DNA from: Deltaproteobacteria bacterium
GTDB taxonomy: Bacteria > Desulfobacterota > Desulfobacteria > Desulfobacterales > JAHEIW01
Direction of reading: 5' to 3'
Assembly: GCA_024639185.1 (NCBI GenBank)
Contig: JAHEIW010000005.1
Span: forward strand, 12,121-76,120
Length of the DNA: 64,000 bases
Under the pieces are notes generated by a model. The model searched no databases and was not told the origin of the DNA. It was given only the letters and a program-made list of their open reading frames with translations. Positions 3,842 through 58,997 of the stretch are shown here, in pieces. Made by a program: the position numbers and the translations under genes. The first letter of the stretch is position 1. The number at the start of each line of letters is the position of its first letter.

Positions 3842-3937
3842 TGGTATTTTGGAATGATGGAATACGGGAATATGGGGCCTCAAAGTTGCATCGCTTTAAC
3901 CGCTATTCCAGCATTCCATTATTCCACCATTCCACTC
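3842..3937. repeat. periodic-arm palindrome (octamer word GGAAT / ATTCC)
   Basis: Left arm: TGGTATTT TGGAATGA TGGAATAC GGGAATAT (3842-3873). Right arm: CTATTCCA GCATTCCA TTATTCCA CCATTCCA (3903-3934). Lies between the hdrA stop and the OFOR-1 promoter region. Confidence 0.75.
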
Positions 3938-4003
3938 ATACAATGTAGAGCCAGCACCGTTAAAAGCTACATGCTTTCAATATGGTTTAGCAATTCCAAG
4001 AGG

Positions 4004-6565
4004 CTAATGACTTGGTCGCAACCAGTGGACGCTGTTGGATCGGCAGTTGGGACAGATACGCTCCCACTCTACATTGAATCGACCGTCCCATAATTGATCG
4101 CACCGGTGGCAATGGAATTGAGCTGCGCTGTTTTCGTCAGCCGGTTTGGGATTCCGGGGCCGGGGTACCCGAACCTTTGACAACTCAGCGCGGGTCAGCT
4201 CTATTTCTTCGGATGTCACCGATTGGCGCTTCTTCTCAGCTTCCTGCATAATCGTCTGCCAGCGGCCACCTTCAGCAGCCGAACACCATTCCAACATCAG
4301 CCGCTCCGGTCGGATACCCATTTTTATCAATTTGTCCCATAAGCCGTCAATACGGCGAACCGTACTTCGATTGGCATCAATGTAATGACAGTCGACATAG
4401 TGACAGCCTGAAACCAGCACAACGGGCGCACCCTTTTGAAATGCATACCACACGAATTCGGGATGCACCCGCCCCGAGCACATGGTCCGTATAATAAAGG
4501 CATGGGGCGGGTAAGCCATACGACTTAAACCGGCTGTGTCAGCACCGGCGTAGGAACACCAGTTACAGGCAAAGGTTACGATTTTTTCCTGACAATTTTC
4601 TTCCAGAATAGCCTCAATTTGGGCATAGATCGCCTGGTCTGAAAAATGCCGCATTTCAATGGCCCCGAATTTACATTCGGCCGCACAGGTCCCACATCCG
4701 GCACAGGCCGCACTGATGATCTGGGGGATCTGCTTCTTTTCCCAGGCTATGGCACCATAAGGACAGACATTGGCGCATTGACCACAGCGGGTGCACGGTT
4801 CTTCATAAACAACCGCTGTGATCGCTTCAACGGCGAAATGGTTTTTTTGCAACAAAATAGAGGCCCGCGAACTGGCGGCGCTGGCCTGGGTGACACTTTC
4901 GCGAACATCTTTGGGGCTTTCAGCTGCGCCGGCAATGTAGACCCCCTTGGTGGGTGTATCCACAGGCCTCAGCTTTGCATGCGCTTCTTTTAGAAATCCA
5001 CCGGGAGATTTGGACAGACTGACCATCTGACGCACAAATTCGGTATCAACGGCCGGCACAGCCCCAACCGCCAACACCAACATATCAAATTCACATTTTT
5101 CAAGACGCTTTTCGGTTGTATTTTCAACCGTCACCCATAAGTTTTTGCTGTGCGGGTCTTCCCGGACCTCACCGGGCAAGCCGCGCAAATATCGGACCCC
5201 ATGGCCGCGGGTCCGCATCAAAAGCTCCTCAAACCCTTTTCCAAAAGCGCGAATATCGGTATAAAAAATCGTAACGTCTGTATCCGGGTAGTTATCAATC
5301 AGGTATTGGGCGCCTTTAATGCTGTTCATACAGCAAATATTGGAGCAATAAGGGTTACCGCGGTCAGGGTCTTGGGTTCGAGAGCCCACACACTGAACGT
5401 AGCCGATACGCAAGGGTCGCTTCTTGTCGCTAGGCCGTCCTAAATGTCCGCCCAATGCGCCTCCGGTGGAAATCAGCCGTTCAAATTCAAGGCTGGTGAC
5501 AACATTGACAAAGCGCGTGTACCCGTATTCATCCAGGGCGGTCGGATCATATATGTCCATACCGGTGGCAACAATGATAGCGCCAATATCAATATCGATA
5601 AGCGCGTCTTCCTGGTCAAAGTTAATGCATTTTTTTTCACAGGATTCAATGCACTTTCCGCAGGCAATCGGGTTGCGACCCAAACAATCTTCGGCTGAAA
5701 CCACATAAGCTGAGGGAACGGCTTGCGGAAATGGGATGTAGATCGCTCGACGGCTGCTCAGTCCCATTTGGAATTCATCGGGGACGACCACCGGACAGAC
5801 GGCCACACAATCACCGCAAGTCGTGCATTGATCTTCATCAACATACCGGGGTTTTTTTCGAATCCGCGCTTTAAAATTACCCACGTATCCGGTGACATCT
5901 TCTAAAACAGCATTGGTCATGAGCTCAATTCGGGGATGCCGACCGACATCCATCATCTTGGGCCCAAGAATTCAGATGCTGCACTCAATGTCCGGATAGA
6001 CTTTGTCGAGCTGGGCCATAATACCGCCAATGGACGGCTTTTTTTCAACCAGATAAACCGGGTGTCCTGCATCTGCCAGATCCAGGGCCGCCTGCATGCC
6101 GGCCACTCCCCCGCCAATCACCAGGGCCGCATCCGTTACCGGAATGTGCTCCTCATCTTGGGGATAGAGCCATTTGGCACGGGCAACGGCAACCCGCACG
6201 ATATCCAATGCTTTAGGAGTGGCAGCTTCACGATCAGGCGTCACCCAGGAACAATGCTCACGAATATTCGCCATTTCCAGCAAATAGGGATTCAACCCGG
6301 CTGCTTGGATGCATTGCCGAAAAATGGGTTCGTATGAAGCCGGTGAACAAGACGCAACCACCACGCGGTTGAGTTTGTGATCGAAAATGGTTTGTTGAAT
6401 TTCTTGCTGGCCCGGATCGGAACACGTGTATTTGTTGCGGACCGCCACGACCACATCCGGTAACCTCTCGGCGAACCGTTGAACCTCGTCGACATCGACA
6501 ACTCCGGCAATATTGGAGCCACAATCACATACAAAAACGCCTATCCGCAATTCTTCTTTGGTCAA
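4004..6565 (-). CDS. hdrA: HdrA-like flavoprotein fused to an MvhD domain; selenoprotein with one in-frame UGA (about 853 aa)
   Basis: Track ORFs 5972..6565 and 4004..5956 are in the same frame, separated only by TGA 5972-5974. Read through, the junction is LDKVYPDIECSI-U-ILGPKMMDVGRHP, which matches the conserved HdrA DCSMCIL.PK motif with Sec at a Cys position. The C-terminal part has the MvhD motif FACNWCSYAGAD...GCH..DCHY. TTG start at 6565 is preceded by AAGGAGG with a 6-nt spacer. Confidence 0.8.
5934..5951 (-). promoter_or_regulatory. candidate bacterial SECIS apical hairpin
   Basis: The mRNA GGAUGUC-GGUC-GGCAUCC forms a 7-bp stem (one G-U pair) with a GGUC tetraloop. This is the same loop as the E. 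coli fdhF SECIS. The loop lies at +31..+34 from the U of UGA. Confidence 0.55.
5972..5974 (-). other. in-frame UGA read as selenocysteine
   Basis: TGA interrupts an otherwise continuous HdrA frame at a position that is Cys in the HdrA motif CS.C-IL. A SECIS-like hairpin follows. Confidence 0.7.
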
Positions 6566-6681
6566 ATTTGGCCTCCTTTGCGCAATCAGAACGTTTTTCG
6601 TTTTAGATTAAATTCCGGCCTGTGATCATTTTGAGCCGATTCGGAAACCAGGCATCTCTCAATAAAGGCCAAACGGTCGGC

Positions 6682-7165: not shown

Positions 7166-7315
7166 GGTTCAGCGTTCAGAGGTTCAGGGTTCGGCGCTCA
7201 AGCTGCTGGCTTCTCGCTTCTTGCAGCTGGCCCGTAATGCACAGCTCACCGACAAGAGGCCAGTGATCAGCAGTTGGTAACCTCAGAACCTTTGAACCTT
7301 GAACCTATGAACCGG
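7166..7315. repeat. nested periodic-arm palindrome (outer word GGTTCAG / GAACCTN, inner word GCTGCTGGC)
   Basis: Left arm: GGTTCAG CGTTCAG AGGTTCAG GGTTCGG (7166-7194). Right arm: TAACCTCA GAACCTTT GAACCTT GAACCTAT GAACCGG (7278-7315). Inner GCTGCTGGC / GCCAG..CAGCAG arms. Fills the kinase-regulator gap and overlaps the kinase 3' end. Confidence 0.75.
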
Positions 7316-21140: not shown

Positions 21141-21284
21141 ATGGCTCACCATTGGAGTAATGGAGCAATCTTGATTTTAGATTTTGGAATTTGGAATGCG
21201 GATTGAAACAGCTGGGTGTTGATGTTCTACTGTTTCGTCCAGTCCTAAAATCCAAATTATGGAATTCTCCATTATGCCATAGCT
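21141..21284. repeat. nested periodic-arm palindrome (words GGAGTAAT, GATTTTAG/TTGGAAT)
   Basis: Left: ..TTGGAGTA ATGGAGCA ATCTTGATTTTAGATTTTGGAATTTGGAATGCGGATTG. Right: ..TCCAGTCCTAAAATCCAAATTATGGAATTCTCCATTATGCCAT. Apex: AAACAG..CTGTTT. Lies between the GGDEF-EAL gene and nagZ. Confidence 0.7.
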
Positions 21285-24885: not shown

Positions 24886-24968
24886 AAACGTAACCACGAA
24901 AACACGGAAAAAAAGAAAGCACGATCTTAGTATTTTTTCGTGGTTTTACGATTTCGTGCTTTCGTGAT
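24886..24968. repeat. periodic-arm palindrome (word CACGAAA / TTTCGTG)
   Basis: AAAACGTAACCACGAAAACACGGAAAAAAAGAAAGCACGATC faces TTTTCGTG GTTTTACG ATTTCGTG CTTTCGTG AT. Sits in the divergent purM / aminotransferase promoter region. Confidence 0.7.
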
Positions 24969-26324: not shown

Positions 26325-26472
26325 ACTGGCTGCTGGCTGCTCGCCGCCGGCTGCTGATAACGGGCGGCTGGTTTATTTAATCGGGGGCGGGGTTTATCCC
26401 CGCCCGCACAACGTGCCAGATGGTCAATGGCCGGCAACCAGAGGCCAGAAGCAAGAAGCCAGTAGCAATAAT
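26325..26472. repeat. periodic-arm palindrome (heptamer word GCTGGCT / CCAGAAG) with a central GC-clamp hairpin
   Basis: Left: ACTGGCT GCTGGCT GCTCGCC GCCGGCT GCTGATA ACGGGCG GCTGGTT (26325-26373). Right: CCAGAGG CCAGAAG CAAGAAG CCAGTAG CAATAAT (26438-26472). Centre: GGGCGGGG-TTTAT-CCCCGCCC (26385-26405). Starts 1 nt after the aminotransferase stop. Confidence 0.75.
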
Positions 26473-28490: not shown

Positions 28491-28745
28491 AACTCTTCTA
28501 TCTTTTGAATTTGTAAAAAAGTCTGTCCCGGCAAGCGGTGTTACCCATACGGGAACAAGGGACTAATGGAAAGTTGGATCAATGGCATATTGGTGATGAA
28601 CAGCGGATCATGTCCTGGTTTTAATTTGCAGTGAGAAATCACCAGAAAAAAGGGGTCCTCAATTCAGCAGACCCAGTGTTCTGATGTTTTCTTAATCCAG
28701 GCCGCCTGCCAAAATAGATACACATGTTTGAATTCGAGGAGCCGT

Positions 28746-30738: not shown

Positions 30739-30879
30739 CTCTGGAATAATGGAATAAGGGGGTTGATCAACTGCAGAACCGGAGAACGGGATTAATGCAA
30801 TGCCAATCTATATGAGGGTGCAATTGCAGTTGAACCCGATATTTTATCATACCAGAATTCCATTATTCCTTGATTGAGG
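30739..30879. repeat. nested periodic-arm palindrome (words GGAATAAT, GTTGAnCAACTGCAG)
   Basis: CTCTGGAATAATGGAATAAGGGGG..GTTGATCAACTGCAGAACC faces GGTGCAATTGCAGTTGAACCC..ACCAGAATTCCATTATTCCTTG. Lies between hldE and the DUF167 gene. Confidence 0.7.
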
Positions 30880-31276: not shown

Positions 31277-31370
31277 CAAAAACATTGCGCGGCCCACCCA
31301 CCGGCGCAAAGAAAGCCCTTGACTAATTCCGCAGAAATGACTATTTTTCTCAACCTTAAAACAAAATTAT

Positions 31371-31447
<77 letters not shown>

Positions 31448-31458
31448 ATATTATACTG

Positions 31459-33119: not shown

Positions 33120-33125
33120 TCTAGA

Positions 33126-34055: not shown

Positions 34056-34464
34056 GTTGTCAATTAACCTTATATAACACAACGCTCTTAGATACTGAAA
34101 CTTTTGTTACTCCAACTTGCATGTAATTTTGAATTTCCGAAAAAGCTGCGATATACATTTTATATTGCAACCAAAATGGTGAGTATATGCAGAGTCTAAA
34201 TGACCCTGCCTCTCTGATTGTCAAAGAACCATACTCTTTAAAACAAATCGTCCAATATGCGGCATTTGGCGGGGCCGGAAAGAGGCGTACCATCCAAAAC
34301 GGCCCCGCCTTTGGCATTACAGGGGAAAATCGAAGAAAAAACCCCAGCACAGCAGCGCAACAACCGGTCATTTGACCGGCCAACATCGGGAGGTTTACGC
34401 CGCTTTGCGGGAGCGCTTGCCAATAATGACCGGCACCCCTTTTTGCATTTGCCTATTAATCATG

Positions 34465-39750: not shown

Positions 39751-39853
39751 GACAGAGGTCAGATGACAGAAGAAAGATAGAAAAATCTGCAAGTTAGAAT
39801 ACCGATATGACCTTCCCTTTTCTGACCTCTGCCTTCTGTTTTCTGTCTTCTGA
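39751..39853. repeat. periodic-arm palindrome (heptamer word GACAGAN / YTTCTGN)
   Basis: GACAGAG GTCAGAT GACAGAA GAAAGAT AGAAAAA (39751-39785) faces TTTCTGA CCTCTGC CTTCTGT TTTCTGT CTTCTGA (39819-39853). Fills the leuS-lptE intercistronic gap. Confidence 0.8.
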
Positions 39854-44883: not shown

Positions 44884-44939
44884 AATGGTTGAATCGTTAA
44901 ACGCTAAGCCGGAAACAGGCGTTTAGCCATTCAACCATT
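44884..44939. repeat. intercistronic long hairpin (yajC-secD gap)
   Basis: AATGGTTGAAT (44884-44894) pairs perfectly with ATTCAACCATT (44929-44939). The inner TTAAACGC / GCGTTTAG pair is also complementary. The arms show a 7-8 nt TTAA/TTGA spacing. Confidence 0.65.
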
Positions 44940-47812: not shown

Positions 47813-47889
47813 TCAACAACCGACGGCTGATGGACTGGTCCGCACAACCCATTTTTCTGTGGCAACCCACGAGACAGCAACGGTTTGAA

Positions 47890-47918
47890 TTGACATTGAT
47901 TTAAACAGACTTTAAAAT
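47890..47918 (+). promoter_or_regulatory. near-consensus sigma70 promoter candidate upstream of dprA-topA
   Basis: TTGACA (47890-47895), 17-nt spacer, TAAAAT (47913-47918). Confidence 0.5.
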
Positions 47919-47955: not shown

Positions 47956-47977
47956 CCCCCTTTCTCAGGGGGTTTTT
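47956..47977 (+). terminator. terminator-like hairpin with T-run in the dprA 5' leader
   Basis: CCCCCT-TTCTC-AGGGGG followed by TTTTT, ending 6 nt before the dprA ATG. Confidence 0.4.
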
Positions 47978-47983
47978 AACGAG

Positions 47984-49214: not shown

Positions 49215-51491
49215 GTGACCAAACCACTTGTAGTTGTGGAATCGCCGACGAAAGTCAAAACGATTAAAAAGTATTTGGGGCAGGATTATAATGTCGCGGC
49301 AACCGTCGGCCATATTAAAGATCTACCCAACAAAGAAATGGGGATTGATATCGAAAACGGATTCAAGCCCCAATACAAGAATATCCCCGGCAAACAAAAA
49401 GTGATCAAAGCTTTAAAACAGGCTGCCGGTGATGCCGCCGATATATATCTGGCACCTGACCCGGATCGTGAAGGTGAAGCCATAGCATGGCATGCTTCGG
49501 AAGTTCTTAAAAAAAAGAGCCGCAAGTTTTATCGCGTTCTTTTTCATGAACTCACCAAAGATGCGATTCATAAAGCGATGACATCACCGCAATCTCTCGA
49601 CCGCCCTAAATATGAAGCCCAACAGGCACGGCGCATACTCGACCGTCTGGTCGGTTATCATATCTCGCCATTGTTATGGCGCAAAGTAAAAGGCGGTTTG
49701 AGCGCCGGCCGGGTGCAATCCGTTGCTGTGCGCATCATTTGTGAAAGAGAACGTGCCATCCAAGCCTTTGAACCCCAGGAGTACTGGTCGATCACGGCGC
49801 ATCTTGAAGGTGAATCCCCTCCCCCGTTTATAGCCAAACTGTCTAAAAAAGATGATACCAAAATTGACATTTCCAATAAAAAATCAGCCGATTCAATACT
49901 CGCGCAGCTCGAAGGTGAAAAATTTGTTGTAAAAAAAATATCTGAAAAGACCATCCGCAAAAACCCGCAACCGCCATTTACCACCAGCAAGCTGCAGCAG
50001 GACGCCATACGCAAATTACGCTTCTCTGCTAAAAAGACCATGTTGATTGCCCAGCAGCTCTACGAAGGTATCGAGCTGGGACCGGGAGAACCCGTCGGTT
50101 TGATCACTTACATGCGAACCGACTCCACACGTATCGCCGGCGAGGCTGCAGAAGAGGCCTTAACGGTCATCCGGGAAAAATTTGGCAACGAATACGCACT
50201 GGATAAACCACGGTATTTTAAAAACCGAAAAAAAGTGCAGGATGCGCACGAAGCCATTCGCCCGACCGTACTCAGGAATACACCTGACGAAATGGCATCT
50301 TATTTATCCAAGGATCAACTGGCTTTATACCGTTTGATCTGGCAGCGCTTCGTCGCCTCCCAGATGAAACAGGCCCTTATCAATCAGGTATCGGTCACCA
50401 TTAAAGCCGGTCCTTATACATTCAACGCCAGCGGATCCACGGTAAAATTCCACGGCTTTATGGCGCTGTATAAGTCAGTCGCCGACGAAAAAGCTGAAAA
50501 GGATCAGAATAAGAAACCCATTTTACCGATCCTGGCGGAAGAAATGTTCTTAACGCTTTTGAAGTTGGCGCCCAAGCAGCATTTTACCCAGCCACCGCCA
50601 CGGTTCTCTGAAGCCTCTCTGGTCAAAGAACTTGAGGAAAATGGGATTGGCCGACCCAGTACCTATGCCAGCATCTTGTCGACCATTCGCATAAAAGAAT
50701 ACGCCAATTTGCAAAATCGATATTTTCGCCCAACTGAGCTGGGTTTCATCGTCAACGATCTTCTGGTAGAAAATTTTCCCGATATCGTTGACGTAGAGTT
50801 TACCGCCCGGATGGAAGAAAACCTGGACCGTGTTGAATCTTCAGAAGTGGAATCCGCCAAAATCCTGTCTCAATTTTATGGTTCCTTTAAAGAGGATCTG
50901 GAAACGGCATCCAAAGATATGCTGAGTGTTAAAGGCGTAGGGTTGCCCACAGGGCTCAATTGCCCGGACTGCGGCAACCCCCTGCATATAAAGGTCGGTA
51001 AAAACGGCCATTTTCTGGCATGCAGCGGTTACCCGGATTGTAACTACTCCAGGGATTATATTCGTGACGAACGCGGAAACGTTCAGCCTGTGGAAAGCAA
51101 CATTGAGGAAGTTGTCGACAAGGTTTGCGATAAATGCGGCAGCCCGATGGTGGTCAAACGCGGTCGCTACGGGGAATTTTTGGCATGCAGTGCATATCCG
51201 GATTGTAAAAATACTCAGTCGCTAAATTCTAATGGCGCCAACCAGAAAATCGGAATAAAATGCCCGCAACAGAATTGCGATGGTGAAATTGTTGAAAGAC
51301 ATTCCAAACGCGGCAAACTGTTTTACGGGTGCAGTCAATTTCCCAAGTGTGAATTCGCCACATGGGACAAACCGATCAATAGAAAATGTCCGCAGTGTGA
51401 TGCCCCTATATTGCTAGAAAAAACAACCAAAAAGGAAGGCACATTTTTAACCTGCCTGTCCACAGAATGCGACTATAAGGAGCTGCTTTAA
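49215..51491 (+). CDS. topA: DNA topoisomerase I
   Basis: 758 aa. GTG start after AAGGAG. TOPRIM (LVVVESP.K..TI), active-site region (GLITYMRTDS) and four C-terminal CxxC..CxxC zinc ribbons. Confidence 0.95.
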   Translation: MTKPLVVVESPTKVKTIKKYLGQDYNVAATVGHIKDLPNKEMGIDIENGFKPQYKNIPGKQKVIKALKQAAGDAADIYLAPDPDREGEAIAWHASEVLKKKSRKFYRVLFHELTKDAIHKAMTSPQSLDRPKYEAQQARRILDRLVGYHISPLLWRKVKGGLSAGRVQSVAVRIICERERAIQAFEPQEYWSITAHLEGESPPPFIAKLSKKDDTKIDISNKKSADSILAQLEGEKFVVKKISEKTIRKNPQPPFTTSKLQQDAIRKLRFSAKKTMLIAQQLYEGIELGPGEPVGLITYMRTDSTRIAGEAAEEALTVIREKFGNEYALDKPRYFKNRKKVQDAHEAIRPTVLRNTPDEMASYLSKDQLALYRLIWQRFVASQMKQALINQVSVTIKAGPYTFNASGSTVKFHGFMALYKSVADEKAEKDQNKKPILPILAEEMFLTLLKLAPKQHFTQPPPRFSEASLVKELEENGIGRPSTYASILSTIRIKEYANLQNRYFRPTELGFIVNDLLVENFPDIVDVEFTARMEENLDRVESSEVESAKILSQFYGSFKEDLETASKDMLSVKGVGLPTGLNCPDCGNPLHIKVGKNGHFLACSGYPDCNYSRDYIRDERGNVQPVESNIEEVVDKVCDKCGSPMVVKRGRYGEFLACSAYPDCKNTQSLNSNGANQKIGIKCPQQNCDGEIVERHSKRGKLFYGCSQFPKCEFATWDKPINRKCPQCDAPILLEKTTKKEGTFLTCLSTECDYKELL

Positions 51492-51556
51492 AAATACTTG
51501 ACAACTCAGCAGCATCCTGCTACTCAGTAGTATAAATTCAGTCTGATGAGATCATA

Positions 51557-51649
51557 ATGAAAAGCCATATCGCCATTAACAACCTTATTAGCCTTATTCA
51601 GGTACTCGTCAGCGGCATTATTATTAGCTGCTGGGGAGCAAAGGGTTGA
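51557..51649 (+). CDS. ilv operon leader peptide (30 aa, rich in Ile/Leu/Val)
   Basis: MKSHIAINNLISLIQVLVSGIIISCWGAKG. 12 of 30 residues are Ile/Leu/Val, including an III run at 51617-51625. The stop codon lies inside the antiterminator strand, and a terminator follows. Confidence 0.6.
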   Translation: MKSHIAINNLISLIQVLVSGIIISCWGAKG

Positions 51650-51682
51650 TAATGGCCTAAATCTGCTAAATCAAGAATTTCA

Positions 51683-51721
51683 AAACCGTTATCAGCCCAA
51701 CGCTGATAACGGTTTTTTTTT
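51683..51721 (+). terminator. attenuator (rho-independent terminator) of the ilv leader
   Basis: AAACCGTTATCAGC-CCAAC-GCTGATAACGGTTT forms a 14-bp perfect stem followed by a 9-T run. It lies 72 nt upstream of the ilvB ATG. Confidence 0.75.
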
Positions 51722-51793
51722 GAGAACAACCCGGAGGTTTTTCTAGTAAAGTGGCATAGAAAAATTTTCCAATGGAAATTAAGAGGTAAGAAA

Positions 51794-53479
51794 ATGAAAT
51801 TAACCGGTGCTCAAATATTAATGGAAATACTCAAAGAAGAAGGCGTCGACACGATCTTCGGATTCCCCGGGGGGGCTGTGATCGATATTTATGATGAACT
51901 GATTAAAACCGATATTCGGCATATACTGGTTAGACATGAACAGGGCGCTGTACACGCTGCCGACGGTTACGCTCGTGCCGGCGACAAAGTCGGCGTTTGC
52001 CTTGTGACTTCCGGGCCCGGCGCAACCAACACGGTCACCGGGATTGCTTCGGCTTATATGGATTCAATTCCGATGGTCATTCTTACCGGGCAGGTGCCAA
52101 CCCAATTAATTGGCAATGATGCTTTCCAGGAAGTTGATATCGTAGGGATCACCCGCCCCTGCACCAAGCATAACTATTTGGTGCCATCGGCTGAAGCTTT
52201 TCCCCGAATTATTAAAGAAGCATTTTACCTGGCGCGCTCAGGCCGTCCGGGCCCTGTGCTGATCGATATTCCCAAAGATGTTGGCAAAGCCGTCATTGAT
52301 TACAAACCCATCAAAGAGGTTCAGCTAAAATCGTACAATCCGACCTATGAGCCGAATATGAAGCAACTCAGAAAAGTCGTTGACCTGGTCGAAGCTTCGC
52401 AAAGGCCGGTTATTTTTGCCGGAGGTGGTGTAATCCTTTCGGGGGCAGCTGCAGAATTGACCCAATTTGCCCGCAACGTCCGCATACCGGTTACAACCTC
52501 GTTAATGGGCCTGGGGAACTTTCCCGGCACAGACCCGTTGTGGCTTGGCATGCTCGGCATGCATGGTACCTATCGTGCCAATATGAGTACCGGCGCTTGC
52601 GATCTTCTGCTTGCCATCGGTGTCCGATTTGATGACCGCGTTACCGGAAAAACAGACGCATTTGCGGCTCAAGCGAAAATTGTCCACATCGATATTGACC
52701 CGACTTCAATTCGCAAAAATATACCGGTGACGATTCCGATTGTCGGAGACTGCAAAATCAGTTTGCAACACCTGAATCAACTCATAGAACAGACTGACCT
52801 GACCGACATCGAAAAGAAACGTCAGAGCTGGTTGGACCAAATTGAGGAATGGAAAAATACCAAGCCGCTGGCTTATAAACAGGAGGATACGCTCAAACCC
52901 CAGTTTGTGGTTGAGAAACTTTATGAGCTAACAAAGGGCGAAGCCATCATTACGACCGAAGTGGGCCAGAATCAGATGTGGGCGGCGCAATATTATCATT
53001 TTGATCGCCCCAACCATTTTATTACATCCGGTGGCCTCGGCTGCATGGGATTTGGGCTGCCGGCAGCCATCGGGGCCCAGATGGCTTGCCCGGACAAGCT
53101 CGTCATCGACATTGCCGGTGATGGCAGTATCCAGATGAACATACAGGAAATGGCCACCGCTGTCCAAAGCGGCCTTCCGGTCAAAGTGGTCATCCTCAAT
53201 AACGCCTATCTGGGGATGGTCCGCCAGTGGCAGGAATTATTTTATGAAAAGCGCTATGCCTGCACGGGCATGGATTGCGCACCGGATTTTGTAAAACTTG
53301 CCGAAGCTTACGGGGCACTTGGTTTGAGAGCAACTAAACCCCAGGACGTTGAAGCGGTGCTCAAGGAAGGCCTGGCCGCCTCCGGACCGGTCATTATGGA
53401 TTTTAAGGTCGATCGTGAAGAAAGTGTTTATCCAATGGTGCCGGCCGGCGCGCCCATCACGGAGATGCTGCTGGTTTAA
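51794..53479 (+). CDS. ilvB: acetolactate synthase, large (catalytic) subunit
   Basis: 561 aa. [15 protein letters not shown], and the [16 protein letters not shown]...GDGS.QMN.QE TPP motif. Confidence 0.95.
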
Positions 53480-53480
53480 A

Positions 53481-53580
53481 TCGCGAAGTCGGGTTTCGCG
53501 TTGCGCGTTAAGTTTTGGCCCGATAGCCTATCAAACACAGTCAACCCGCAACCCGTAACCCGTAACTCGCATCTCGCAAC
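53481..53580. repeat. periodic-arm palindrome (heptamer word CGCGTTG / CAACCCG)
   Basis: TCGCGAAG TCGGGTT TCGCGTT GCGCGTTA (53481-53510) faces CAACCCG CAACCCG TAACCCG TAACTCG CATCTCG CAAC (53542-53580). Fills the ilvB-ilvN gap. Confidence 0.75.
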
Positions 53581-53592
53581 AGGAATTTAAAG

Positions 53593-54081
53593 ATGGAAGA
53601 AAAAAAACATACCATGACGATGCTGGTCGATAATCAACCGGGGGTGCTCTCAAGGGTTTCCGGGCTGTTCAGCGGTAAGGGATTCAACATCGAAAGCCTG
53701 TGCACTGCACCAACCATGGACCCGAAGGTATCCCGGATAACGATTGTCACCAAGGCCAATCCGCCCGTAATTGAACAAGTTGAAAAACAGCTCAGAAAGT
53801 TGATCAATGTCATCAAACTGCGCGATATGACCGGAGCAAGGGCGGTAAAAAGAGAAATGGCCTTGATCTGTGTGAAGGCGCGGCCGGATTTACGGGCGGA
53901 AATTCTGCGAATTGTAGACATCTTTCGCTGCAAAGTGATTGATGTCGGCACTGAGCACTATATTATCGAGGTTACCGGAGATGAAGGAAAATTGAAAGCG
54001 CTGATCAACCTCCTCAAACCGATGGGAATAAAAAAAATTGCCCGTAGCGGATCGTTGGCACTCTATCGAGAACCCAAGTAG
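53593..54081 (+). CDS. ilvN: acetolactate synthase, small (regulatory) subunit
   Basis: 162 aa. ACT domain: H.....V.N.PGVL.RV.GLFS.KGFNIESL. Confidence 0.9.
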   Translation: MEEKKHTMTMLVDNQPGVLSRVSGLFSGKGFNIESLCTAPTMDPKVSRITIVTKANPPVIEQVEKQLRKLINVIKLRDMTGARAVKREMALICVKARPDLRAEILRIVDIFRCKVIDVGTEHYIIEVTGDEGKLKALINLLKPMGIKKIARSGSLALYREPK

Positions 54082-54109
54082 TTTTCAATTCCTAAATGGC
54101 TATTTTTCC

Positions 54110-54195
54110 GCTGGACTGCGTTCTCCGAGGGTTTTAGACCTCAACGTACGCTAAAGTATGCCTCGATCTAAAACCCGTGTGCGGCCTTGCCCAGC
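54110..54195. repeat. intercistronic long hairpin (ilvN-ilvC gap)
   Basis: GCTGGACTGCG..GAGGGTTTTAGA faces TCTAAAACCC..GCGGCCTTGCCCAGC. Flanked by T5 upstream and A8 downstream. Confidence 0.6.
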
Positions 54196-54305
54196 AAAAA
54201 AATATCTCATTCATGAATTAAAAACACTTTCTTTGAATAGCAAATTGTTAAAAACATTTCATCACGGATTAACGTTAATGCAAGACTGAAAAAAGGAGAA
54301 AATGA

Positions 54306-55358
54306 ATGGCACAGTTTAATTTCGGAGGAACCGAAGAAGAAGTGATCACGGATGAGGAGTTTTCGCTGCAGCAAGCCCGCGACGTTCTTGCAGATGAAGT
54401 CGTGGCTGTTTTGGGGTATGGCGTCCAAGGCCCCGGTCAGGCGTTGAATATGAGAGACAACGGCATCAACGTTATCGTCGGCCAGCGTGAGAGCAGTGAC
54501 TCCTGGGACCGTGCGGTATCGGATGGATTTGTGGCGGGCAAAACTCTTTTTCCGTTACTGGAAGCCGCGCAGCAGGCAACCGTCATCCAGTACCTGCTTT
54601 CTGATGCTGGCCAAAAGGCCATGTGGCCACAGATAAAGGAATGCCTGGCAGATGGAAACACGCTCTATTTCTCGCATGGGTTTTCAATCGTTTACCACGA
54701 ACAAACCGGTGTGATAGCGCCCCCCAATGTGGATGTGGTTTTAGTAGCGCCCAAAGGATCAGGGCGTACCGTCAGGAGCAATTTTCTGGACGGTAGCGGC
54801 ATAAACTCGAGCTTCGCCATTCATCAGGATTACACCGGAAAAGCCCGGGAAAAAACCCTGGCACTCGGAATTGCCATCGGCTCCGGTTACCTGTTCCCGA
54901 CCACCTTTGCCAATGAAGTATACAGTGATTTAACCGGCGAGCGCGGTGTGCTGATCGGCTGCCTGGCAGGTGTCATGGAGGCACAGTACGCGCTATTGCG
55001 TAAACATGGACACAGTCCGAGCGAGGCGTTTAACGAAACCGTGGAAGAATTGACCCAGAGCCTCATCCGCCTGGTGGCCGCAAACGGCATGGATTGGATG
55101 TTTGCCAGTTGCTCTACAACCGCGCAGCGCGGTGCCTTAGACTGGGCACCCAAATTTCGGGATGCGGTCGCTCCTGTATTTGATAAGCTGTATGAACGCG
55201 TCGTGTCCGGTGAGGAAACCAAGCGGGTACTGGAAACGAACAGCGCACCGGATTATCGCGAAAAGCTCGAAAAAGAACTGACGGTTATGAGAGACTCCGA
55301 GATGTGGCAGGCCGGTGCCGTGGTCCGTTCACTAAGACCGGAAAACCGCAAAAAATAA
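54306..55358 (+). CDS. ilvC: ketol-acid reductoisomerase
   Basis: 350 aa. VAVLGYGVQGPGQALN Rossmann motif, SHGF, and the APKG.G..VR motif. AAGGAG RBS. Confidence 0.85.
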   Translation: MAQFNFGGTEEEVITDEEFSLQQARDVLADEVVAVLGYGVQGPGQALNMRDNGINVIVGQRESSDSWDRAVSDGFVAGKTLFPLLEAAQQATVIQYLLSDAGQKAMWPQIKECLADGNTLYFSHGFSIVYHEQTGVIAPPNVDVVLVAPKGSGRTVRSNFLDGSGINSSFAIHQDYTGKAREKTLALGIAIGSGYLFPTTFANEVYSDLTGERGVLIGCLAGVMEAQYALLRKHGHSPSEAFNETVEELTQSLIRLVAANGMDWMFASCSTTAQRGALDWAPKFRDAVAPVFDKLYERVVSGEETKRVLETNSAPDYREKLEKELTVMRDSEMWQAGAVVRSLRPENRKK

Positions 55359-55362
55359 ATCG

Positions 55363-55460
55363 GGCGCACGGCGCACGGTGTATGGCGCAAGGCAGGGAAT
55401 CAAATCCCGTAAATTAAAAACGTTCCTTCGTCTTGAGCCTGACGCCTTAGGCCTTGAGCC
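55363..55460. repeat. periodic-arm palindrome (heptamer word GGCGCAM / CTTGAGC)
   Basis: GGCGCAC GGCGCAC GGTGTAT GGCGCAA GGCAGGG (55363-55397) faces CCTTCGT CTTGAGC CTGACGC CTTAGGC CTTGAGC (55425-55459). Fills the ilvC-cimA gap. Confidence 0.8.
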
Positions 55461-55481
55461 ATCATGTGTTGGAGAACTCTA

Positions 55482-57110
55482 ATGGACCCAATCCTTTTAT
55501 ACGATACGACGTTAAGAGATGGAACCCAGGGAGAAAATGTCACTTTTTCGGCAGAAGAAAAATTAAATATCGCTTTGCGTCTGGACGATAACGGTATTCA
55601 TTATATCGAAGGCGGTTGGCCCGGTTCGAATCCCAGGGATGTCGCCTTTTTCGATTTGGCCAAACGCGTAAAATTCACGCAGGCCCGTCTGGCGGCCTTT
55701 GGTTCAACCCGCAAACCCGGTATTCGCCCCGATGAGGACCAAAATTTAAAGGCATTGCTGGAAACCGAAACGCCGACGGTTACCGTTTTCGGCAAAAGCT
55801 GGGACCTGCATGTTGAGCAGATCATGGGTAACACCTTGATAGAAAATCTGGCCATGATCAATGACAGCGTTGCATTTTTAAAGCAGCATGACCGCGAAGT
55901 TGTCTATGACGCCGAACACTTTTTTGACGGCTATAAGAACAATAAAAACTATGCCCTTAAATCGCTGGGCGCTGCTGTCGACGGCGGCGCTGATTTTATT
56001 GTTTTATGTGACACAAATGGGGGTACGCTCCCCTACGAATTGGAGATGATCATTGATAGGCTGCAAACAGAATTAAAGGACTACTGCGCAAATCCATCTC
56101 AAAATGATTCCATCAAGCTTGGCATTCACTGTCACAATGACTGCAGTATGGCGGTGGCAAATTCGATCAGTGCCATTCACAAAGGGGCTGTCATGGTCCA
56201 CGGGACCATAAATGGATATGGTGAAAGATGCGGCAATGCCGATTTAACCTCAATCATTCCCATCCTGAAACTGAAAATGGAACGCGGGTGCGTCTCGGCT
56301 GAAAATCTTCAGAAGCTAAAAAATCTTTCGCGTTATGTCAGTGAAACAGCCAATCTGGTTCCGGTCAACTCACGGCCCTTTGTGGGCAAAAGCGCTTTTG
56401 CGCACAAAGGCGGCATTCATGTCAGCGCGATTATGAAAGCACCTCTTGCGTATGAACACATGGACCCGGCAGCGGTCGGCAACAACCGCCGGGTGCTGGT
56501 CTCCGATCTCTCGGGCAAAAGCAACGTGGAGTACAAAGCCAGGGAACTGGGTGTCGAACTGGGCAATAACGGCTTTGACAGCCGTCAAATCGCCTCTGAG
56601 ATCAAACAACTCGAACAGGAAGGTTATCAGTTTGATTCAGCAGATGGTTCGTTTAAAATTTTGCTGGAAAAATTTACCGATCAATTTGAGCCTCATTTTG
56701 AACTCGAATCTTTCCGGGTAACCATTGAAAAGGACAAGGATCAACCCTGCTCTGCGCATGCGACGATCAAAATTAGCGTCAGCGGCAACCAGGAAATTAC
56801 AGCTGGTGAGGGATACGGACCGGTCAGCGCCCTGGACAATGCGCTCAGAAAGGCTCTGGGTAAATTCTACCCCGACCTGGATACGATGCGACTGGTCGAT
56901 TTTAAAGTCCGCGTTATCGACGGCAGCCGGGGCACGGCCGCCAAAGTGCGCGTACTCATCGAATCGCGGGATCAAAATGAAATCTGGAGCACGATGGGTG
57001 TTTCGGAGGACATCATAGAAGCCAGCTGGCAGGCGCTGGCAGATAGTTTTCAATTTAAACTCGCCAATGCTCAGCGTATCCGAATCGAGGATTCGGCAAA
57101 ATCGCTGTAA
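55482..57110 (+). CDS. cimA: (R)-citramalate synthase (LeuA-related, long-form CimA type)
   Basis: ATG at 55482, 6 nt after GGAGA, gives MDPILLYDTTLRDGTQGE. HCHND and GTINGYGERCGNA are present, plus a C-terminal LeuA-dimer regulatory domain. This family type is distinct from the adjacent leuA. Confidence 0.75.
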   Translation: MDPILLYDTTLRDGTQGENVTFSAEEKLNIALRLDDNGIHYIEGGWPGSNPRDVAFFDLAKRVKFTQARLAAFGSTRKPGIRPDEDQNLKALLETETPTVTVFGKSWDLHVEQIMGNTLIENLAMINDSVAFLKQHDREVVYDAEHFFDGYKNNKNYALKSLGAAVDGGADFIVLCDTNGGTLPYELEMIIDRLQTELKDYCANPSQNDSIKLGIHCHNDCSMAVANSISAIHKGAVMVHGTINGYGERCGNADLTSIIPILKLKMERGCVSAENLQKLKNLSRYVSETANLVPVNSRPFVGKSAFAHKGGIHVSAIMKAPLAYEHMDPAAVGNNRRVLVSDLSGKSNVEYKARELGVELGNNGFDSRQIASEIKQLEQEGYQFDSADGSFKILLEKFTDQFEPHFELESFRVTIEKDKDQPCSAHATIKISVSGNQEITAGEGYGPVSALDNALRKALGKFYPDLDTMRLVDFKVRVIDGSRGTAAKVRVLIESRDQNEIWSTMGVSEDIIEASWQALADSFQFKLANAQRIRIEDSAKSL

Positions 57111-57308
57111 AGGAGAATTCAAGTGAAAAGGACGAAAGGAATCAACGCCGCGGGCCTTCCCTTCTCGGGCGGCCTGCGGCCGATGCTCCCTGCTTTACGG
57201 TCAAATCGATAAAGGGTTAAATCGTTGAACAGTTAGGCTTAGACCGATCAGGAAAAAGATCTTACCCATTTACAAACCAACCATTTAATTAAAGGGAGCC
57301 AGAGCAAA

Positions 57309-58847
57309 ATGAACGATCATGTATTGATATTTGATACCACATTAAGGGATGGTGAGCAGAGTCCGGGCGCCAGCATGAATACGGCCGAAAAATTGCGAAT
57401 CGCGACCCAATTGGAAAAATTGGGTGTCGATATCCTCGAGGCCGGTTTCCCGGCTGCCTCCGATGGCGATCTGGAAGCGGTATCTCGAATTGCCGGTAAG
57501 CTGAAAAAAACAGAAGTGGCCGCCCTGGCACGGACTTCCAAAAGCGATATCGACCGGGCCTGGGCAGCCATCCGCCACGCAGCCAAGCCTCGCATACATA
57601 CCTTTATCGCCACATCAGACATTCACCTGGAATACAAACTGAAAATGTCTCGTGAAGAAGTCGTCAGGGCCGCGGTTGAGGCAGTAAAATATGCCCGAAG
57701 CTTGACCGATAATGTCGAATTTTCAGCCGAAGATGGCTCGCGCAGCGATCGCGATTTTCTTTGCAACGTATTTGAAGCCGTCATCGAAGCCGGCGCCACA
57801 ACCGTAAATTTACCCGATACCGTCGGCTATGCCATTCCTCAGGAATTTTCCGAGCTGGTCAACTATGTCAGCACGCACACGCCCAATATCGGTAACGCCA
57901 TATTGAGCGTCCACTGCCACAATGATCTGGGGCTGGCCACCGCCAATACGCTTTCGGCCATCACTTCCGGCGCCCGGCAGGCTGAGGTCACCATCAACGG
58001 TATCGGTGAACGGGCCGGCAACACATCTCTTGAAGAAGTCGTTATGTCGCTGGTAACGCGTAACAATTCATTGGGGCTGACGACTTCCATTCAGACCGAA
58101 TACATTCATCCCACCAGCCGACTGGTGAGCATGATTACGGGCATAATGGTGCAACCCAATAAGGCCGTTGTTGGCGCCAATGCTTTTGCGCACGAGGCCG
58201 GAATCCATCAGGACGGCGTGCTGAAAAATCCCATGACCTATGAAATCATGAAGCCGGAAACGATCGGCCTGAGCACCAACAGGCTGGTTCTGGGCAAGCA
58301 TTCCGGACGGCATGCCTTGCGCTCCCGCTTAAAGAGCATGGGTTATGACTTATCCGATGAAGAAATCAACCTTGTCTTTACACGCTTTAAAGAACTGGCA
58401 GACAAAAAAAAGCATGTCGTCGATGAAGACCTTGAAGTCATCGTAACCGAGGGCATTTTGCGGACAACGGATATTTTCAAGCTTGAATACCTGCACGTTA
58501 CGGCCGGTACAACCGTATTGCCCATGGCCAGCGTCAAGCTGGGTATTAACGGTCGGCCGGTGCAGGGCGCAGGCTACGGAAACGGCCCTATCGATGCAGC
58601 TTTTAATGCCATCGGCAAACTAACCGGGACGGCGTCAGAACTGTTGCGCTTTTCGGTCAGCGCCCTGACGGGCGGTACCGATGCCCAGGGGGAAGTAACC
58701 GTTCGCCTGCGCGAAAACGGCCTTCTGGCCCTGGGCCGCGGGGCGGATCCTGATATTATTACAGCCGGCGCCAAAGCGTATGTCAACGGCTTAAACCGCC
58801 TGGAGTACCTGAAAACCCATCCGGTCAGAGAAGCCGTCGTCTTATAG
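57309..58847 (+). CDS. leuA: 2-isopropylmalate synthase
   Basis: 512 aa. IFDTTLRDGEQSPG, HCHNDLGLA, TINGIGERAGN, HQDG.LK. Confidence 0.9.
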   Translation: MNDHVLIFDTTLRDGEQSPGASMNTAEKLRIATQLEKLGVDILEAGFPAASDGDLEAVSRIAGKLKKTEVAALARTSKSDIDRAWAAIRHAAKPRIHTFIATSDIHLEYKLKMSREEVVRAAVEAVKYARSLTDNVEFSAEDGSRSDRDFLCNVFEAVIEAGATTVNLPDTVGYAIPQEFSELVNYVSTHTPNIGNAILSVHCHNDLGLATANTLSAITSGARQAEVTINGIGERAGNTSLEEVVMSLVTRNNSLGLTTSIQTEYIHPTSRLVSMITGIMVQPNKAVVGANAFAHEAGIHQDGVLKNPMTYEIMKPETIGLSTNRLVLGKHSGRHALRSRLKSMGYDLSDEEINLVFTRFKELADKKKHVVDEDLEVIVTEGILRTTDIFKLEYLHVTAGTTVLPMASVKLGINGRPVQGAGYGNGPIDAAFNAIGKLTGTASELLRFSVSALTGGTDAQGEVTVRLRENGLLALGRGADPDIITAGAKAYVNGLNRLEYLKTHPVREAVVL

Positions 58848-58997
58848 GAGTTTGGCGTACTGGAGCAATGCATTGCGTTTCGAGTTACGCGTTGCCGAGT
58901 TACGGGGTAAATGATGAAAACACCAGAATCCCGCATTCACGCGCAACCCGTGACACGCAACTGTGATCCATCCATTACTCCACGACTCCATCACTCC
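58847..58997. repeat. nested periodic-arm palindrome (outer word GGAG(T/C)AATG, inner word GTTACGCGTTGC)
   Basis: GGAGTTTGGCGTACTGGAGCAATGCATTGCGTTTCGAGTTACGCGTTGCCGAGTTACGGGG faces CCGCATTCACGCGCAACCCGTGACACGCAACTGTGATCCATCCATTACTCCACGACTCCATCACTCC. Spans the whole gap between the convergent leuA and pyrD stop codons. Confidence 0.75.

Follow-up and report, generated by a model that had tools for sequence, protein, structure and literature searches.

The window analyzed here, a 64-kb stretch of DNA from a sulfate-reducer-type genome of the Desulfobacterales, raises the question of what the long imperfect palindromes that recur in its intergenic gaps are, and how they came to be there. The reading that we favor, with moderate confidence, is that they are dispersed, genome-specific DNA palindromes with arms made of simple-sequence arrays, similar to REP/BIME elements and co-transcribed as hairpins with a putative effect at the RNA level.

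Arm architecture and folding

In each arm, 3 to at least 13 units, 7 or 8 nt long, follow one another in tandem; the opposite arm consists of the complement. Hairpins with periodic arms, of fold z-score -3 to -5, were present in 11 intergenic gaps of the window. An earlier note had described recurrent intergenic palindromes, mostly close to gene 3′ ends, in which the arms are periodic and the words differ by locus, along with nested copies and single-arm remnants. This description was supported, and the sequences and coordinates quoted for four arm pairs (3842-73/3903-34, 26325-73/26438-72, 39751-85/39819-53, and 55363-97/55425-59), two nested loci, and the shared words were all exact on read-back. 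The features are listed below in order of position; no strand is assigned to the palindromes, E1 to E11.

913..942, + strand: orphan array GGAGTAAT GGAGTGTT GGATGGAT..., without complementary partner or folding
3842..3934: E1, octamer-word palindrome; 5′ arm 3842-3873, TGGTATTT TGGAATGA TGGAATAC GGGAATAT; 3′ arm 3903-3934, CTATTCCA GCATTCCA TTATTCCA CCATTCCA; flanked by an hdrA-like gene (4004-5956, -) and a small ferredoxin gene (~3476-3692, -); fold z -5.0/-3.9
7166..7313: E2, nested; outer arms 7166-7194 (GGTTCAG-type) and 7282-7313 (GAACCTT-type); inner arms 7202-7232 (GCTGCTGGC...) and 7251-7273 (...GGCCAG...); fold z -4.9
21153..21280: E3, nested; outer arms TGGAGTAATGGAG (21153-21165) and TCTCCATTATGCCAT (21266-21280); inner arms at 21173-21205, of TTTGGAA-type heptamers, and at 21240-21267
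24892..24968: E4, palindrome with CACGAAA/TTTCGTG words, arms 24892-24926 and 24933-24968; the gap is divergent, with a purM-like gene (-) on one side and an aminotransferase gene (+) on the other; z -4.3
26326..26472: E5, heptamer palindrome with the uncommon reversed polarity; CTGGCTG-type 5′ arm at 26326-26356, CCAGAAG-type 3′ arm at 26438-26472, G+C hairpin core 26383-26405; starts 2 nt past the aminotransferase stop, with a homoserine dehydrogenase gene downstream
28559..28593, + strand: orphan array GGGACTAATGGAAAGTTGGATCAATGGCATATTGG; the sense strand is purine-rich
30741..30869: E6, octamer palindrome of the E1 family; arms CTGGAATAATGGAATAAGGGGG (30741-30762) and CCAGAATTCCATTATTCC (30852-30869)
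39751..39853: E7, heptamer palindrome in the leuS/lptE gap (both genes -); arms 39751-39785 (GACAGAG GTCAGAT GACAGAA...) and 39819-39853 (TTTCTGA CCTCTGC CTTCTGT...)
44884..44939: E11, hairpin with 21-nt arms upstream of secD, AATGGTTGAATCGTTAAACGC / GCGTTTAGCCATTCAACCATT
53488..53580: E8, ilvB-ilvN intercistronic element; arms 53488-53512 (GCGTTGC-type) and 53542-53580 (CAACCCG/TAACCCG, five units)
55363..55459: E9, intercistronic, between ilvC and cimA; GGCGCAC-type arm at 55363-55397, CTTGAGC-type arm at 55425-55459; runs from 5 nt past the ilvC stop to ~10 nt short of the cimA ribosome-binding site. The true cimA ATG is at ~55482
58851..58990: E10, nested, occupying the whole convergent leuA|pyrD gap; outer arms GTACTGGAGCAATG (58851-58870) and CCATTACTCCACGACTCCA (58966-58990); inner arms 58873-58907 and 58930-58961, of the GCGTTGC/CCCGTGAC family, as in E8; z -3.7/-4.3
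62089..62124, + strand: lone surviving 3′ arm, …CGTGCTTTCGTGATTTTTT

The 7-8 nt periodicity reported in the note is real and nearly confined to intergenic DNA, which makes up 8.9 of the 64 kb. An autocorrelation scan (35-nt windows, self-match of at least 60%) detected 9 intergenic and 2 coding regions at period 7 and 11 intergenic and 2 coding regions at period 8. About 0.3 such regions (0.2-0.35) are expected from shuffled intergenic DNA, with a maximum of 3 in 200 shuffles, and the same scan found no intergenic excess at periods 4-6 or 9-13. Period-7/8 arrays were reported independently by Tandem Repeats Finder at 11 element arms.

Twelve candidate hairpins folded better than dinucleotide-shuffled controls on at least one strand (z = -2.7 to -5.0). 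The two arrays singled out as orphans gave no folding signal against the same controls (z ~0). Arm pairing is imperfect, with Watson-Crick complementarity of ~75%, and in E9 it relies on G·U pairs, with one mismatch per unit. Sense-strand G·U pairs (122) did not significantly exceed A·C mispairs (97), and the complementarity of an arm to its own partner was no higher than to partners from other copies. This matching across copies, with G·U not favored, points to DNA-level copying and not to RNA compensation, and these data hold no clear sign of the RNA hairpin as the selected unit. Stability favored the sense strand over the antisense strand by only a small margin (22 versus 9 elements, p = 0.04). 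E11 is probably not a member of the periodic-arm class but a different, conserved, putatively regulatory hairpin; unlike the other window elements, its sequence is conserved in the relatives L001, L003, and L006.

Placement and polarity

Elements were found in 33 co-directional, 21 convergent, and 10 divergent contexts. Convergent gaps, often filled from stop to stop, are 2.5 times denser in elements (0.84 per kb of intergenic DNA, against 0.34 in co-directional and 0.31 in divergent gaps), and promoter-containing divergent gaps show no enrichment. The median distance from the upstream stop was 9 nt in the metagenome set. Their position makes it plausible that the elements form part of polycistronic mRNAs, as the note suggested. 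Half of the elements are inside operons, among them the essential ilvBNC-cimA-leuA and leuS-lptE operons, so any termination at the elements must be weak.

The purine-rich arm comes first in 51 elements and the pyrimidine-rich arm in 5 (p = 1e-10), or 27 versus 5 after clustering. Polarity was replicated with (TGGAGNNN)n arrays from an independent metagenome set, whose CTCCA partner lies downstream in 36 cases and upstream in 0. Purine-first order is strict in convergent (17:0) and divergent (9:0) gaps, and all five reverse-polarity elements are between co-directional genes. Ordinary intergenic hairpins have the same bias, weakly (196 versus 132). As a consequence of this polarity, the pyrimidine-rich arm is made second on either strand and would pair at once, at a time when the polymerase contains an RNA:DNA hybrid of the weak rY:dR type.

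The polarity and its replication, the density in convergent gaps, the position of the five exceptions, and the bias of ordinary hairpins would all be expected of selected, factor-independent, bidirectional terminators or pause/insulator hairpins that need no U-tract. The purine-rich arm would be made first from either side, the hairpin would zip over a pyrimidine-RNA/purine-DNA hybrid, the least stable class, and periodic arms would permit nucleation in any register and fast evolutionary tuning of stem length. Canonical hairpin-plus-T-run terminators are found in only 17 of 108 convergent gaps of these genomes, so other signals must operate there, and one published analysis makes the case that a hairpin can terminate without U or A trails. 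We nevertheless consider such a function unlikely. The hairpins lack a following U-tract (mean of 3.1 T in the next 10 nt; at least 6 T in 2 of 33), although the same genome has classical terminators (51682-51716 plus a T-run; 47956-47972). Elements are common inside operons, and divergent gaps, where a terminator is unneeded, show the same polarity. Absence from orthologous gaps is frequent (L009, L011, and L016 have no element), and neither compensatory co-evolution of the arms nor a significant G·U excess was found.

Turnover and word families

Comparison of orthologous gaps in relatives revealed presence/absence differences and also family replacement, words at one site being freely swapped. 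The ilvB-ilvN gap holds one family in the window and L003 and another, GGTTATT/AATAAC in L004, in L004 (the closest relative) and L006. At leuA|pyrD the outer arms of E10 are common to the relatives, and the inner element is different or missing. The gap at 62078 has three states: full (a complete CACGAAA/TTTCGTG hairpin in L001), one-arm, and empty (0-6 nt in L002, L003, L006, and L008). Across 63 genomes the ilvC-cimA gap is 13-410 nt long, with periodic arrays in 21. The E9 homologues of L001-L004 and L007 are distinguished by indels of 7 and 21 nt, and indels between close orthologues are 7, 14, or 21 nt. Between close relatives, copies of the elements appear, disappear, and are replaced by others; nesting results from new copies sitting within the loops of resident ones, and arm length shifts by one-unit steps. 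Insertion boundaries are unclean; because entire spacers differ among relatives, part of the turnover could be allelic exchange via homologous recombination. Neither a mobilizing enzyme nor terminal inverted repeats nor target-site duplications could be found, and the window contains no transposase gene.

The element grammar was seen again in 120 metagenome contigs and in 80 relatives from the Desulfobacterales. Of 297 arrays counted in the window together with 80 Desulfobacterales loci, 231 fall in intergenic DNA; 42% of these have a reverse-complement partner within 250 nt, compared with 2.6% in reversed/complemented controls, and 58% are single-arm arrays. The identical words claimed at unlinked loci of the window are exact in position: GGAGTAATGGAG at 913 and 21154, CGTGCTTTCGTGAT at 24955 and 62106, CCCGTAACTCG at 53559 with an inverted copy at 58896, and GCTGCTGGC at 7202 and 26329. 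The last, a 9-mer, is weak evidence because it also occurs three times within genes (27271, 48106, and 59950). Word matches within the window are short, at 12-18 nt, with E = 0.006-0.05 apiece. All six occurrences in the window of the 10-mer GGA[GA]TAATGG and its complement are intergenic. Unlinked loci share a consensus word in 4.7% of cases within a genome and 0.38% between genomes (13-fold, p = 2e-11), and the words are genome-specific multicopy families. At L077 three ~150-nt copies have a common order of unit variants and differing loops, and at L024 four copies lie within 10 kb.

A local mutational by-product without dispersal or function, in which a post-stop hairpin grows by heptamer slippage and one arm is copied onto the other via intrastrand template switching (quasipalindrome correction), would account for indels in unit multiples, for the very unequal arms at L024 (13 versus 5 units), and for the many single-arm arrays. 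Among the long simple-sequence repeats of prokaryotes, heptamers are the most frequent, with polymerase slippage proposed as the cause, according to a summary of Mrazek (2007). We think this origin improbable, as it conflicts with the excess of word sharing within genomes and with the unit-variant order kept by the dispersed L077 copies. Local template switching predicts that an arm fits its own partner best, whereas arms fit other copies equally, and strict polarity is not predicted.

REP/BIME elements bind IHF and gyrase. The palindromes might likewise be duplex-DNA sites for a nucleoid-associated or global regulatory protein, the inverted arrays binding a dimer or oligomer head to head; their polarity is fixed whatever the transcription context, and in the TGGAGNNN family unconstrained positions are conserved (TGGAGTRW) over contigs of 39-67% G+C. 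IHF/HU binding has been proposed for the identical architecture in Geobacter metallireducens. This is slightly more doubtful still: a single sequence-specific protein does not fit a genome that uses many unrelated words (at least 7 in this window; 180 canonical units among the 231 arrays), words are replaced freely at orthologous sites, the 7-8-bp period differs from the helical repeat, and divergent, promoter-containing gaps are not enriched. Least probable is that the purine-rich arrays are tandem RNA sites bound by a post-transcriptional regulator (CsrA (AUGGA), ribosomal protein S1, cold-shock proteins, or the ribosomal anti-Shine-Dalgarno sequence), masked by the complementary arm: A(N)GGA and GGAG motifs do recur at 8-nt intervals in the TGGAGTRW and TGGAATRA families, Shine-Dalgarno-like tetramers number 40 in 5′ arms and 7 in 3′ arms, the sense strand of orphan arrays is the purine-rich one (42 versus 11), and proteins of this type have been proposed for the TAACTGA heptamer repeats of Beggiatoaceae, but GGA/GGAG is absent from most families (GACAGAG, GGCGCAC, GTGAAAC, TCGAAAT, GCGGATT, GGTTATT), most of the motifs are paired in the predicted fold, and elements also occupy convergent and divergent gaps.

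For the dispersed, REP-like palindromes that we favor, copies of one family occupy several unlinked intergenic sites of a genome. Replication slippage would add and remove units, and whole palindromes or arms would be copied to new sites by a DNA-level process, candidate routes being trans-acting, transposase-type mobilization and ectopic conversion. Copies would survive only in non-coding spacers, typically spanning from a few nt past a stop codon to just short of the next ribosome-binding site or else filling the gap between convergent genes. Co-transcription would then yield long, imperfect hairpins without a U-tract. By analogy, these would most likely act as REP hairpins do, possibly as barriers against 3′-5′ exonucleases, as weak, orientation-independent pause or termination sites, or as shields of untranslated spacer RNA from Rho.

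Relation to known repeats

The earlier note had not recognized a known family here, but the element kind is not new: its architecture has already been published. In G. metallireducens (2009), class 1-3 "paired sites" consist of opposite-strand arrays of 3-5 tandem 7-9-nt units located 3′ of genes or between cistrons, and the class 3 word, MTYCTGA, is the word of E7 at 39819-39853. In Xanthomonas (2015), inverted pairs of the GGGAATC heptamer are transcribed, lie ~28 nt from the upstream stop, and number 70-75 convergent pairs per genome. Both published elements have the same architecture, placement, and polarity as those described here. The resemblances drawn in the note were apt: enterobacterial REP/BIME elements, likened on placement, would with REPINs be the behavioral counterpart of these palindromes, and the likeness to STRR-type heptamer repeats lies in the periodicity.

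Periodic-arm palindromes in the window

By Pfam, the gene content of the window is housekeeping (pyruvate:ferredoxin oxidoreductases, Hdr-like proteins, leuS-lptE, RNase E/G, secDF and an ilvB-ilvN-ilvC-cimA-leuA operon). Its nearest relatives among GTDB representatives are named Desulfobacterales MAGs, the best of them with 91% ilvC identity. Intergenic DNA accounts for 8.9 of the 64 kb. In a self-match scan of the window, 9 intergenic and 2 coding regions had period 7, and 11 and 2, respectively, had period 8, against about 0.3 such regions expected in shuffled spacers; among periods 4 to 13, only 7 and 8 gave an intergenic excess of this kind. The earlier note, a model's reading of the sequence alone, had proposed intergenic palindromes in which tandem 7-8-nt words face complementary words. 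Tandem Repeats Finder also called period-7/8 arrays at the arms it quoted, and at least three tandem units of 7-9 nt per site were found by this program, by autocorrelation and by direct reading. The arms are 35-50 nt each and form imperfect stems. Candidate hairpins folded 2.7 to 5 SD better than dinucleotide shuffles, and two orphan arrays did not fold in the same comparison. The quoted sequences, coordinates and shared words were all exact on read-back and the structural description was right, with periodicity, folding and intergenic bias statistically solid.

Eleven palindromes with periodic arms were counted, together with three single-arm arrays, and the elements make up roughly 15% of the intergenic DNA of the window. 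The count includes a hairpin upstream of secD (44884-44939) whose 21-nt arms are 90% complementary and whose sequence, unlike those of the periodic elements, is kept in three relatives (L001, L003 and L006). This hairpin is probably unrelated to the periodic elements, and its conservation probably marks a true regulatory or terminator structure. Counted in the window only, the word families include GGA[GA]TAATGG at 6 sites, CACGAAA at 2 and GCGTTGC/CCCGTAAC at 2. Several non-periodic features were also observed.

Other features of the window
31277-34400: low-G+C island (about 32% versus 49%) directly after tRNA-Met (31371-31447), with a response-regulator diguanylate cyclase (33126-34055) and ORFs without a Pfam match; likely a tRNA-associated acquired segment
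34466-34501: perfect 36-nt palindrome (AAAAAAAGGTTTAGACCA/TGGTCTAAACCTTTTTTT) with an A-run and a T-run at its flanks; a textbook bidirectional intrinsic terminator, unlike the U-tract-less periodic hairpins
51500-51725, upstream of ilvB: classical leader-peptide attenuator with a TTGACA...TATAAAT promoter-like site, a 30-codon Ile/Leu/Val-rich ORF (51557-51649, MKSHIAINNLISLIQVLVSGIIISCWGAKG) and a 15-bp stem (51682-51716) followed by a T-run; its only Rfam match is a weak one to His_leader (25 bits, E = 0.77)
55464-55483: the longest-ORF cimA start (ATG at 55464) falls within the spacer; since relatives conserve GGAGAACYCTAATGGA, the true start is put at about 55482
57111-57308, cimA-leuA spacer: non-periodic structured RNA of ~200 nt, kept in L002, L003, L004 and L007 (the spacer is only 11-27 nt in L001, L005, L006 and L008), with a hairpin GCCGCGGGCC...GGCCTGCGGC and a long-range helix GCTCCCT...AGGGAGC; both sides have changed with pairing kept in 11 of 35 predicted pairs; no Rfam match; may be a leuA-specific leader or a small ORF (VKRTKGINAAGLPF...)

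Distribution and turnover among Desulfobacterales

For comparison, 80 ilvC regions of other Desulfobacterales were used. Together with the window these held 297 period-7/8 arrays, 231 of them intergenic. A reverse-complement partner lay within 250 nt of 42% of the intergenic arrays, compared with 2.6% in reversed/complemented controls. The arrays lay near the upstream stop and favoured convergent over divergent gaps. The ilvC-cimA spacer ranged from 13 to 410 nt among 63 genomes and held periodic arrays in 21 of them, with words that vary by lineage (GGCGCAM/CTTGAGC, GACGACA/TCTGTCA, GAAACGT/CACGTTT, GCTGGGA/CATCCCAG, GTTATTC/CAATAAC and others). The elements are real, statistically solid and widespread, and lie inside core biosynthetic operons of many Desulfobacterales.

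Each genome has its own multicopy word families, as judged by the window families, by two further loci (L024 and L077) and by within-genome sharing: identical consensus words at unlinked loci were 13 times commoner within than between genomes (p = 2e-11). Clustering on shared 10-mers gave one cluster because words are so widely shared, and 12- to 14-mers were used instead. L077 has three copies of ~150 nt with the same order of unit variants and unrelated loops. L024 has (GTGAAAC/GTGAAGC)n facing (CACGTTT/CACGCTT)n in four spacers of a 10-kb stretch, and the arms can be unequal, with as many as 13 units opposite 5.

Turnover is visible between close relatives. The closest, L004, has 92-95% DNA identity in flanking genes and a different family throughout the ilvB-ilvN spacer; the more distant L003 has the family of the window. 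In the convergent leuA-pyrD gap the outer TGGAGTAYTGGAG/CTCCA arms are common to all relatives, and the inner element is GCGTTGC/CCCGTGAC in the window, GCGGATT/AATCCGC in five relatives and missing from two. Comparison of orthologous gaps, which the earlier note had suggested as a check on presence/absence polymorphism, gave all three states at 62078-62151: one arm in the window, the whole hairpin in L001 and an empty gap of 0-6 nt in four relatives. The states of these two gaps indicate that nesting is the placing of one element in the loop of another, and those of the second that orphan arrays are at least sometimes remnants. Close orthologues differ in element length by 7, 14 or 21 nt. The elements are hotspots of 7-nt indels and spacer replacement, which affects assembly, operon prediction and strain typing.

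Two post-stop spacers, 47813-47890 and 53480-53592, form a mosaic at odds with their flanking genes. Here the window resembles L003 (85% in the flanks), and L004 (92-95%) resembles L001 or L006, which points to allelic exchange among 3' hairpin cassettes or to their long-standing polymorphism.

Purine-first polarity and arm complementarity

Of the 56 elements with compositional polarity, 51 have purines predominating in the 5' arm and pyrimidines in the 3' arm (p = 1e-10). Because the elements are palindromic, this polarity holds on both strands. The ratio of purine-first to reversed elements was 17:0 in convergent, 9:0 in divergent and 19:5 in co-directional gaps, and 27:5 after related elements had been clustered. 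Ordinary intergenic hairpins had the same bias in far weaker form (196:132). Unpaired arrays were purine-rich on the sense strand (42:11).

An independent test was provided by a metagenome scan for (TGGAGNNN)3TGGAG, which returned at least 120 contigs of 34-67% G+C. Among the matches listed, free positions were non-random, with the consensus TGGAGTRW; a (CTCCANNN) array lay within 300 nt downstream in 36 of 88 full-flank arrays and upstream in 0 of 88 (p = 3e-11). The pairs, again among the matches listed, had a median spacer of 50 nt and a median edge distance of 9 nt from the upstream stop. Opposite-strand pairs of the same word at about 50-200 nt are purine-first (51:5 and 36:0, with pairing at 42% versus 2.6%). 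Individual contigs held a very long (TGGAGNNN)n array of at least 24 units (L160, 10635-10823), two complete TGGAG/CTCCA palindromes 4.5 kb apart (L085, 1840-2003 and 6364-6494), and a loop with a further palindrome, built of GGGAATY-type words as in Xanthomonas (L090).

Arms were no more complementary to their own partners than to the partners in other copies of the family. In co-directional gaps the sense strand had 122 G·U and 97 A·C oppositions, which is not a significant difference, and the sense fold was modestly more stable than the antisense fold (22 versus 9 elements, p = 0.04). In the ilvC-cimA element (55363-55459), 2 of 23 pairs were compensatory among 6 orthologues, and there were many changes from G-C to G-U. 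From these comparisons, complementarity looks to be inherited from a palindromic family consensus and not kept locally by RNA selection. For a claim of selection on the RNA hairpin, the fold asymmetry and G·U counts are too weak.

Origin, function and known systems

We see about an even chance that the elements are REP/BIME-like dispersed palindromes made of simple-sequence units, with the REP-like consequences of co-transcribed hairpins. Slippage would alter unit number, a DNA-level process would copy families into new 3'-proximal spacers and resident loops, and the co-transcribed hairpins would act as REP hairpins do. Two RNA-level rationales, both drawn from established biophysics, would fit the purine-first polarity: the C/U-rich arm, made second, would be sequestered at once and Rho thereby avoided, and a weak rY:dR hybrid in the polymerase at hairpin closure would favour pausing or termination. 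In Enterobacteria and Pseudomonas, REP/BIME/REPIN hairpins protect upstream mRNA. These too are genome-specific multicopy imperfect palindromes that lie in transcribed extragenic DNA, chiefly downstream of genes or in intercistronic gaps, with inverted pairs of fixed orientation, clustered and nested mosaics and presence/absence polymorphism. However, REP units are 20-40 nt long with a conserved non-periodic sequence, a 5' GTAG-type motif and mobilisation by RAYT transposases, whereas the present elements have arms of tandem 7-8-nt units whose number varies. The sequences read showed neither a shared non-periodic core nor a GTAG motif. No transposase was found among the 40 window proteins scanned. 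Inspection of full, one-arm and empty sites and of family copies revealed no evident clean boundaries or target-site duplications, and a search for an autonomous parent (an ORF between inverted arrays 250-4000 nt apart) recovered only neighbouring copies of the same family.

That the elements are instead dedicated bidirectional terminators lacking a U-tract is unlikely. Like intrinsic bidirectional terminators, they are hairpins just past stops, including those in convergent gaps, and are symmetric on both strands. They differ in the missing U-tract, in their much longer imperfect stems, in their position inside operons and in forming multicopy families. The 10 nt past the 3' arm held a mean of 3.1 T, with six or more in 2 of 33, and the elements had no G+C-rich stem-loop followed directly by a U-tract. 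A terminator scan called no whole element, only a 5-bp minus-strand stem inside the ilvC-cimA element, and its sites were no more numerous than in shuffled sequence. Classical terminators do occur in the genome. Across the 80 loci, canonical hairpin-plus-T-run terminators were present in 17 of 108 element-free convergent gaps (about 16%), a rarity which indicates that these genomes largely use other termination signals and which left a terminator substitution test uninformative. Should they affect termination, mRNA decay or access of Rho, the hairpins would give bacteria with few classical terminators a general and rapidly evolving means of operon tuning. The purine-first rule is a simple handle for testing, by arm swap.

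Purely local slippage with template switching would account for the 7-nt length steps, and Mrazek 2007, as summarised elsewhere, ranks heptamers first among long simple-sequence repeats of prokaryotes and proposes polymerase slippage; given identical words at unlinked loci of one genome, we consider this reading quite unlikely. Cyanobacterial STRR and Beggiatoaceae TAACTGA repeats are likewise intergenic tandem heptamers of several word families and variable copy number. Those arrays are essentially direct, however (169 direct sets versus 1 indirect in the BOGUAY genome), and TAACTGA arrays lie just upstream of start codons, not after stops.

Rfam, which the earlier note had proposed to search, holds no named family that matches the elements: at the gathering threshold the window matched only tRNA-Met, a permissive scan of 51400-59100 placed nothing on the elements, and nine related loci gave no match. 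A literature search for TGGAGTRW words returned only unrelated papers, none on bacterial repeats, and a paper on intrastrand-triplex repeats was, from the part available, judged not relevant. The same architecture has nevertheless been published for Geobacter metallireducens and Xanthomonas, so that the earlier note overstated its novelty as an unrecognised combination.

In G. metallireducens GS-15, "putative global regulator binding sites" of classes 1-3 comprise 24, 21 and 8 pairs of opposite-strand sites, each of 3-5 tandem units (GTTGCTYN, 8 nt; TCTCCGTS[Y]; MTYCTGA, 7 nt), drawn as looped alignments and guessed, without tests, to bind IHF/HU (Aklujkar et al. 2009, PMC2700814). There, too, paired sites lie on opposite strands at a variable distance of about 75-115 nt; several classes of 8-24 pairs share a genome, some sites belong to two classes, and sites occur 3' of genes, in intercistronic gaps (proB-proA, moaA-mosC) or in convergent ones. 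The polarity is purine-first, and the class 3 unit MTYCTGA is the word at 39819-39853 of the window. Geobacter differs in belonging to another order, Desulfuromonadales, and in having ISGme8/9 at fixed distances from class 1 sites, whereas the present data revealed no IS. Turnover, nesting by insertion and polarity lay outside the analysis of that study. That the elements are protein-binding arrays on DNA, as the Geobacter guess would have it, is in our view very unlikely, and RNA-binding-protein sites are highly improbable. A CsrA or Shine-Dalgarno explanation was rejected as a general one, since it suits the GGAG and GGAAT families alone.

Xanthomonas genomes carry 183-186 GGGAATC arrays each, 70-75 of them convergent opposite-strand pairs (Rehm et al. 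2015, PMC4692102). These are transcribed, lie about 28 nt from the upstream stop and nearer to it than to the next gene, favour convergent over divergent gaps (16% versus 8%), and are kept in presence but variable in length between species (PMC4692102). Like Nostoc GGGGAYT repeats they are intergenic heptamer arrays of 2-26 units, and their word is similar to that of the window family TGGAATRA/GGGAATAT. In Xanthomonas, however, one G-rich word dominates each genome and has been studied as a G-quadruplex and i-motif former, whereas the present genomes each use many words, most of them quadruplex-incapable, with octamer families and nesting. The G-quadruplex explanation was rejected because most words here have no G-runs.

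The purine-first rule in general, multi-family turnover with nesting, and the occurrence in Desulfobacterales appear to be new to the literature. A bolder proposal, which we hold only tentatively and think rather unlikely, is that the families of Desulfobacterales, classes 1-3 of Geobacter, the GGGAATC pairs of Xanthomonas and the metagenome-wide TGGAGTRW/WYACTCCA family form one widespread unnamed class of obligate purine-first simple-sequence palindromes. Their polarity would then be mechanistically meaningful: it would mark self-assembling bidirectional terminators or insulators that need no U-tract and are tuned by slippage, or else be the footprint of strand-specific mobilisation on single-stranded hairpins. 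The architecture recurs in at least three distant lineages and many metagenome contigs without a name or an Rfam or repeat-database entry, and the window elements are new members of this known, unnamed kind.
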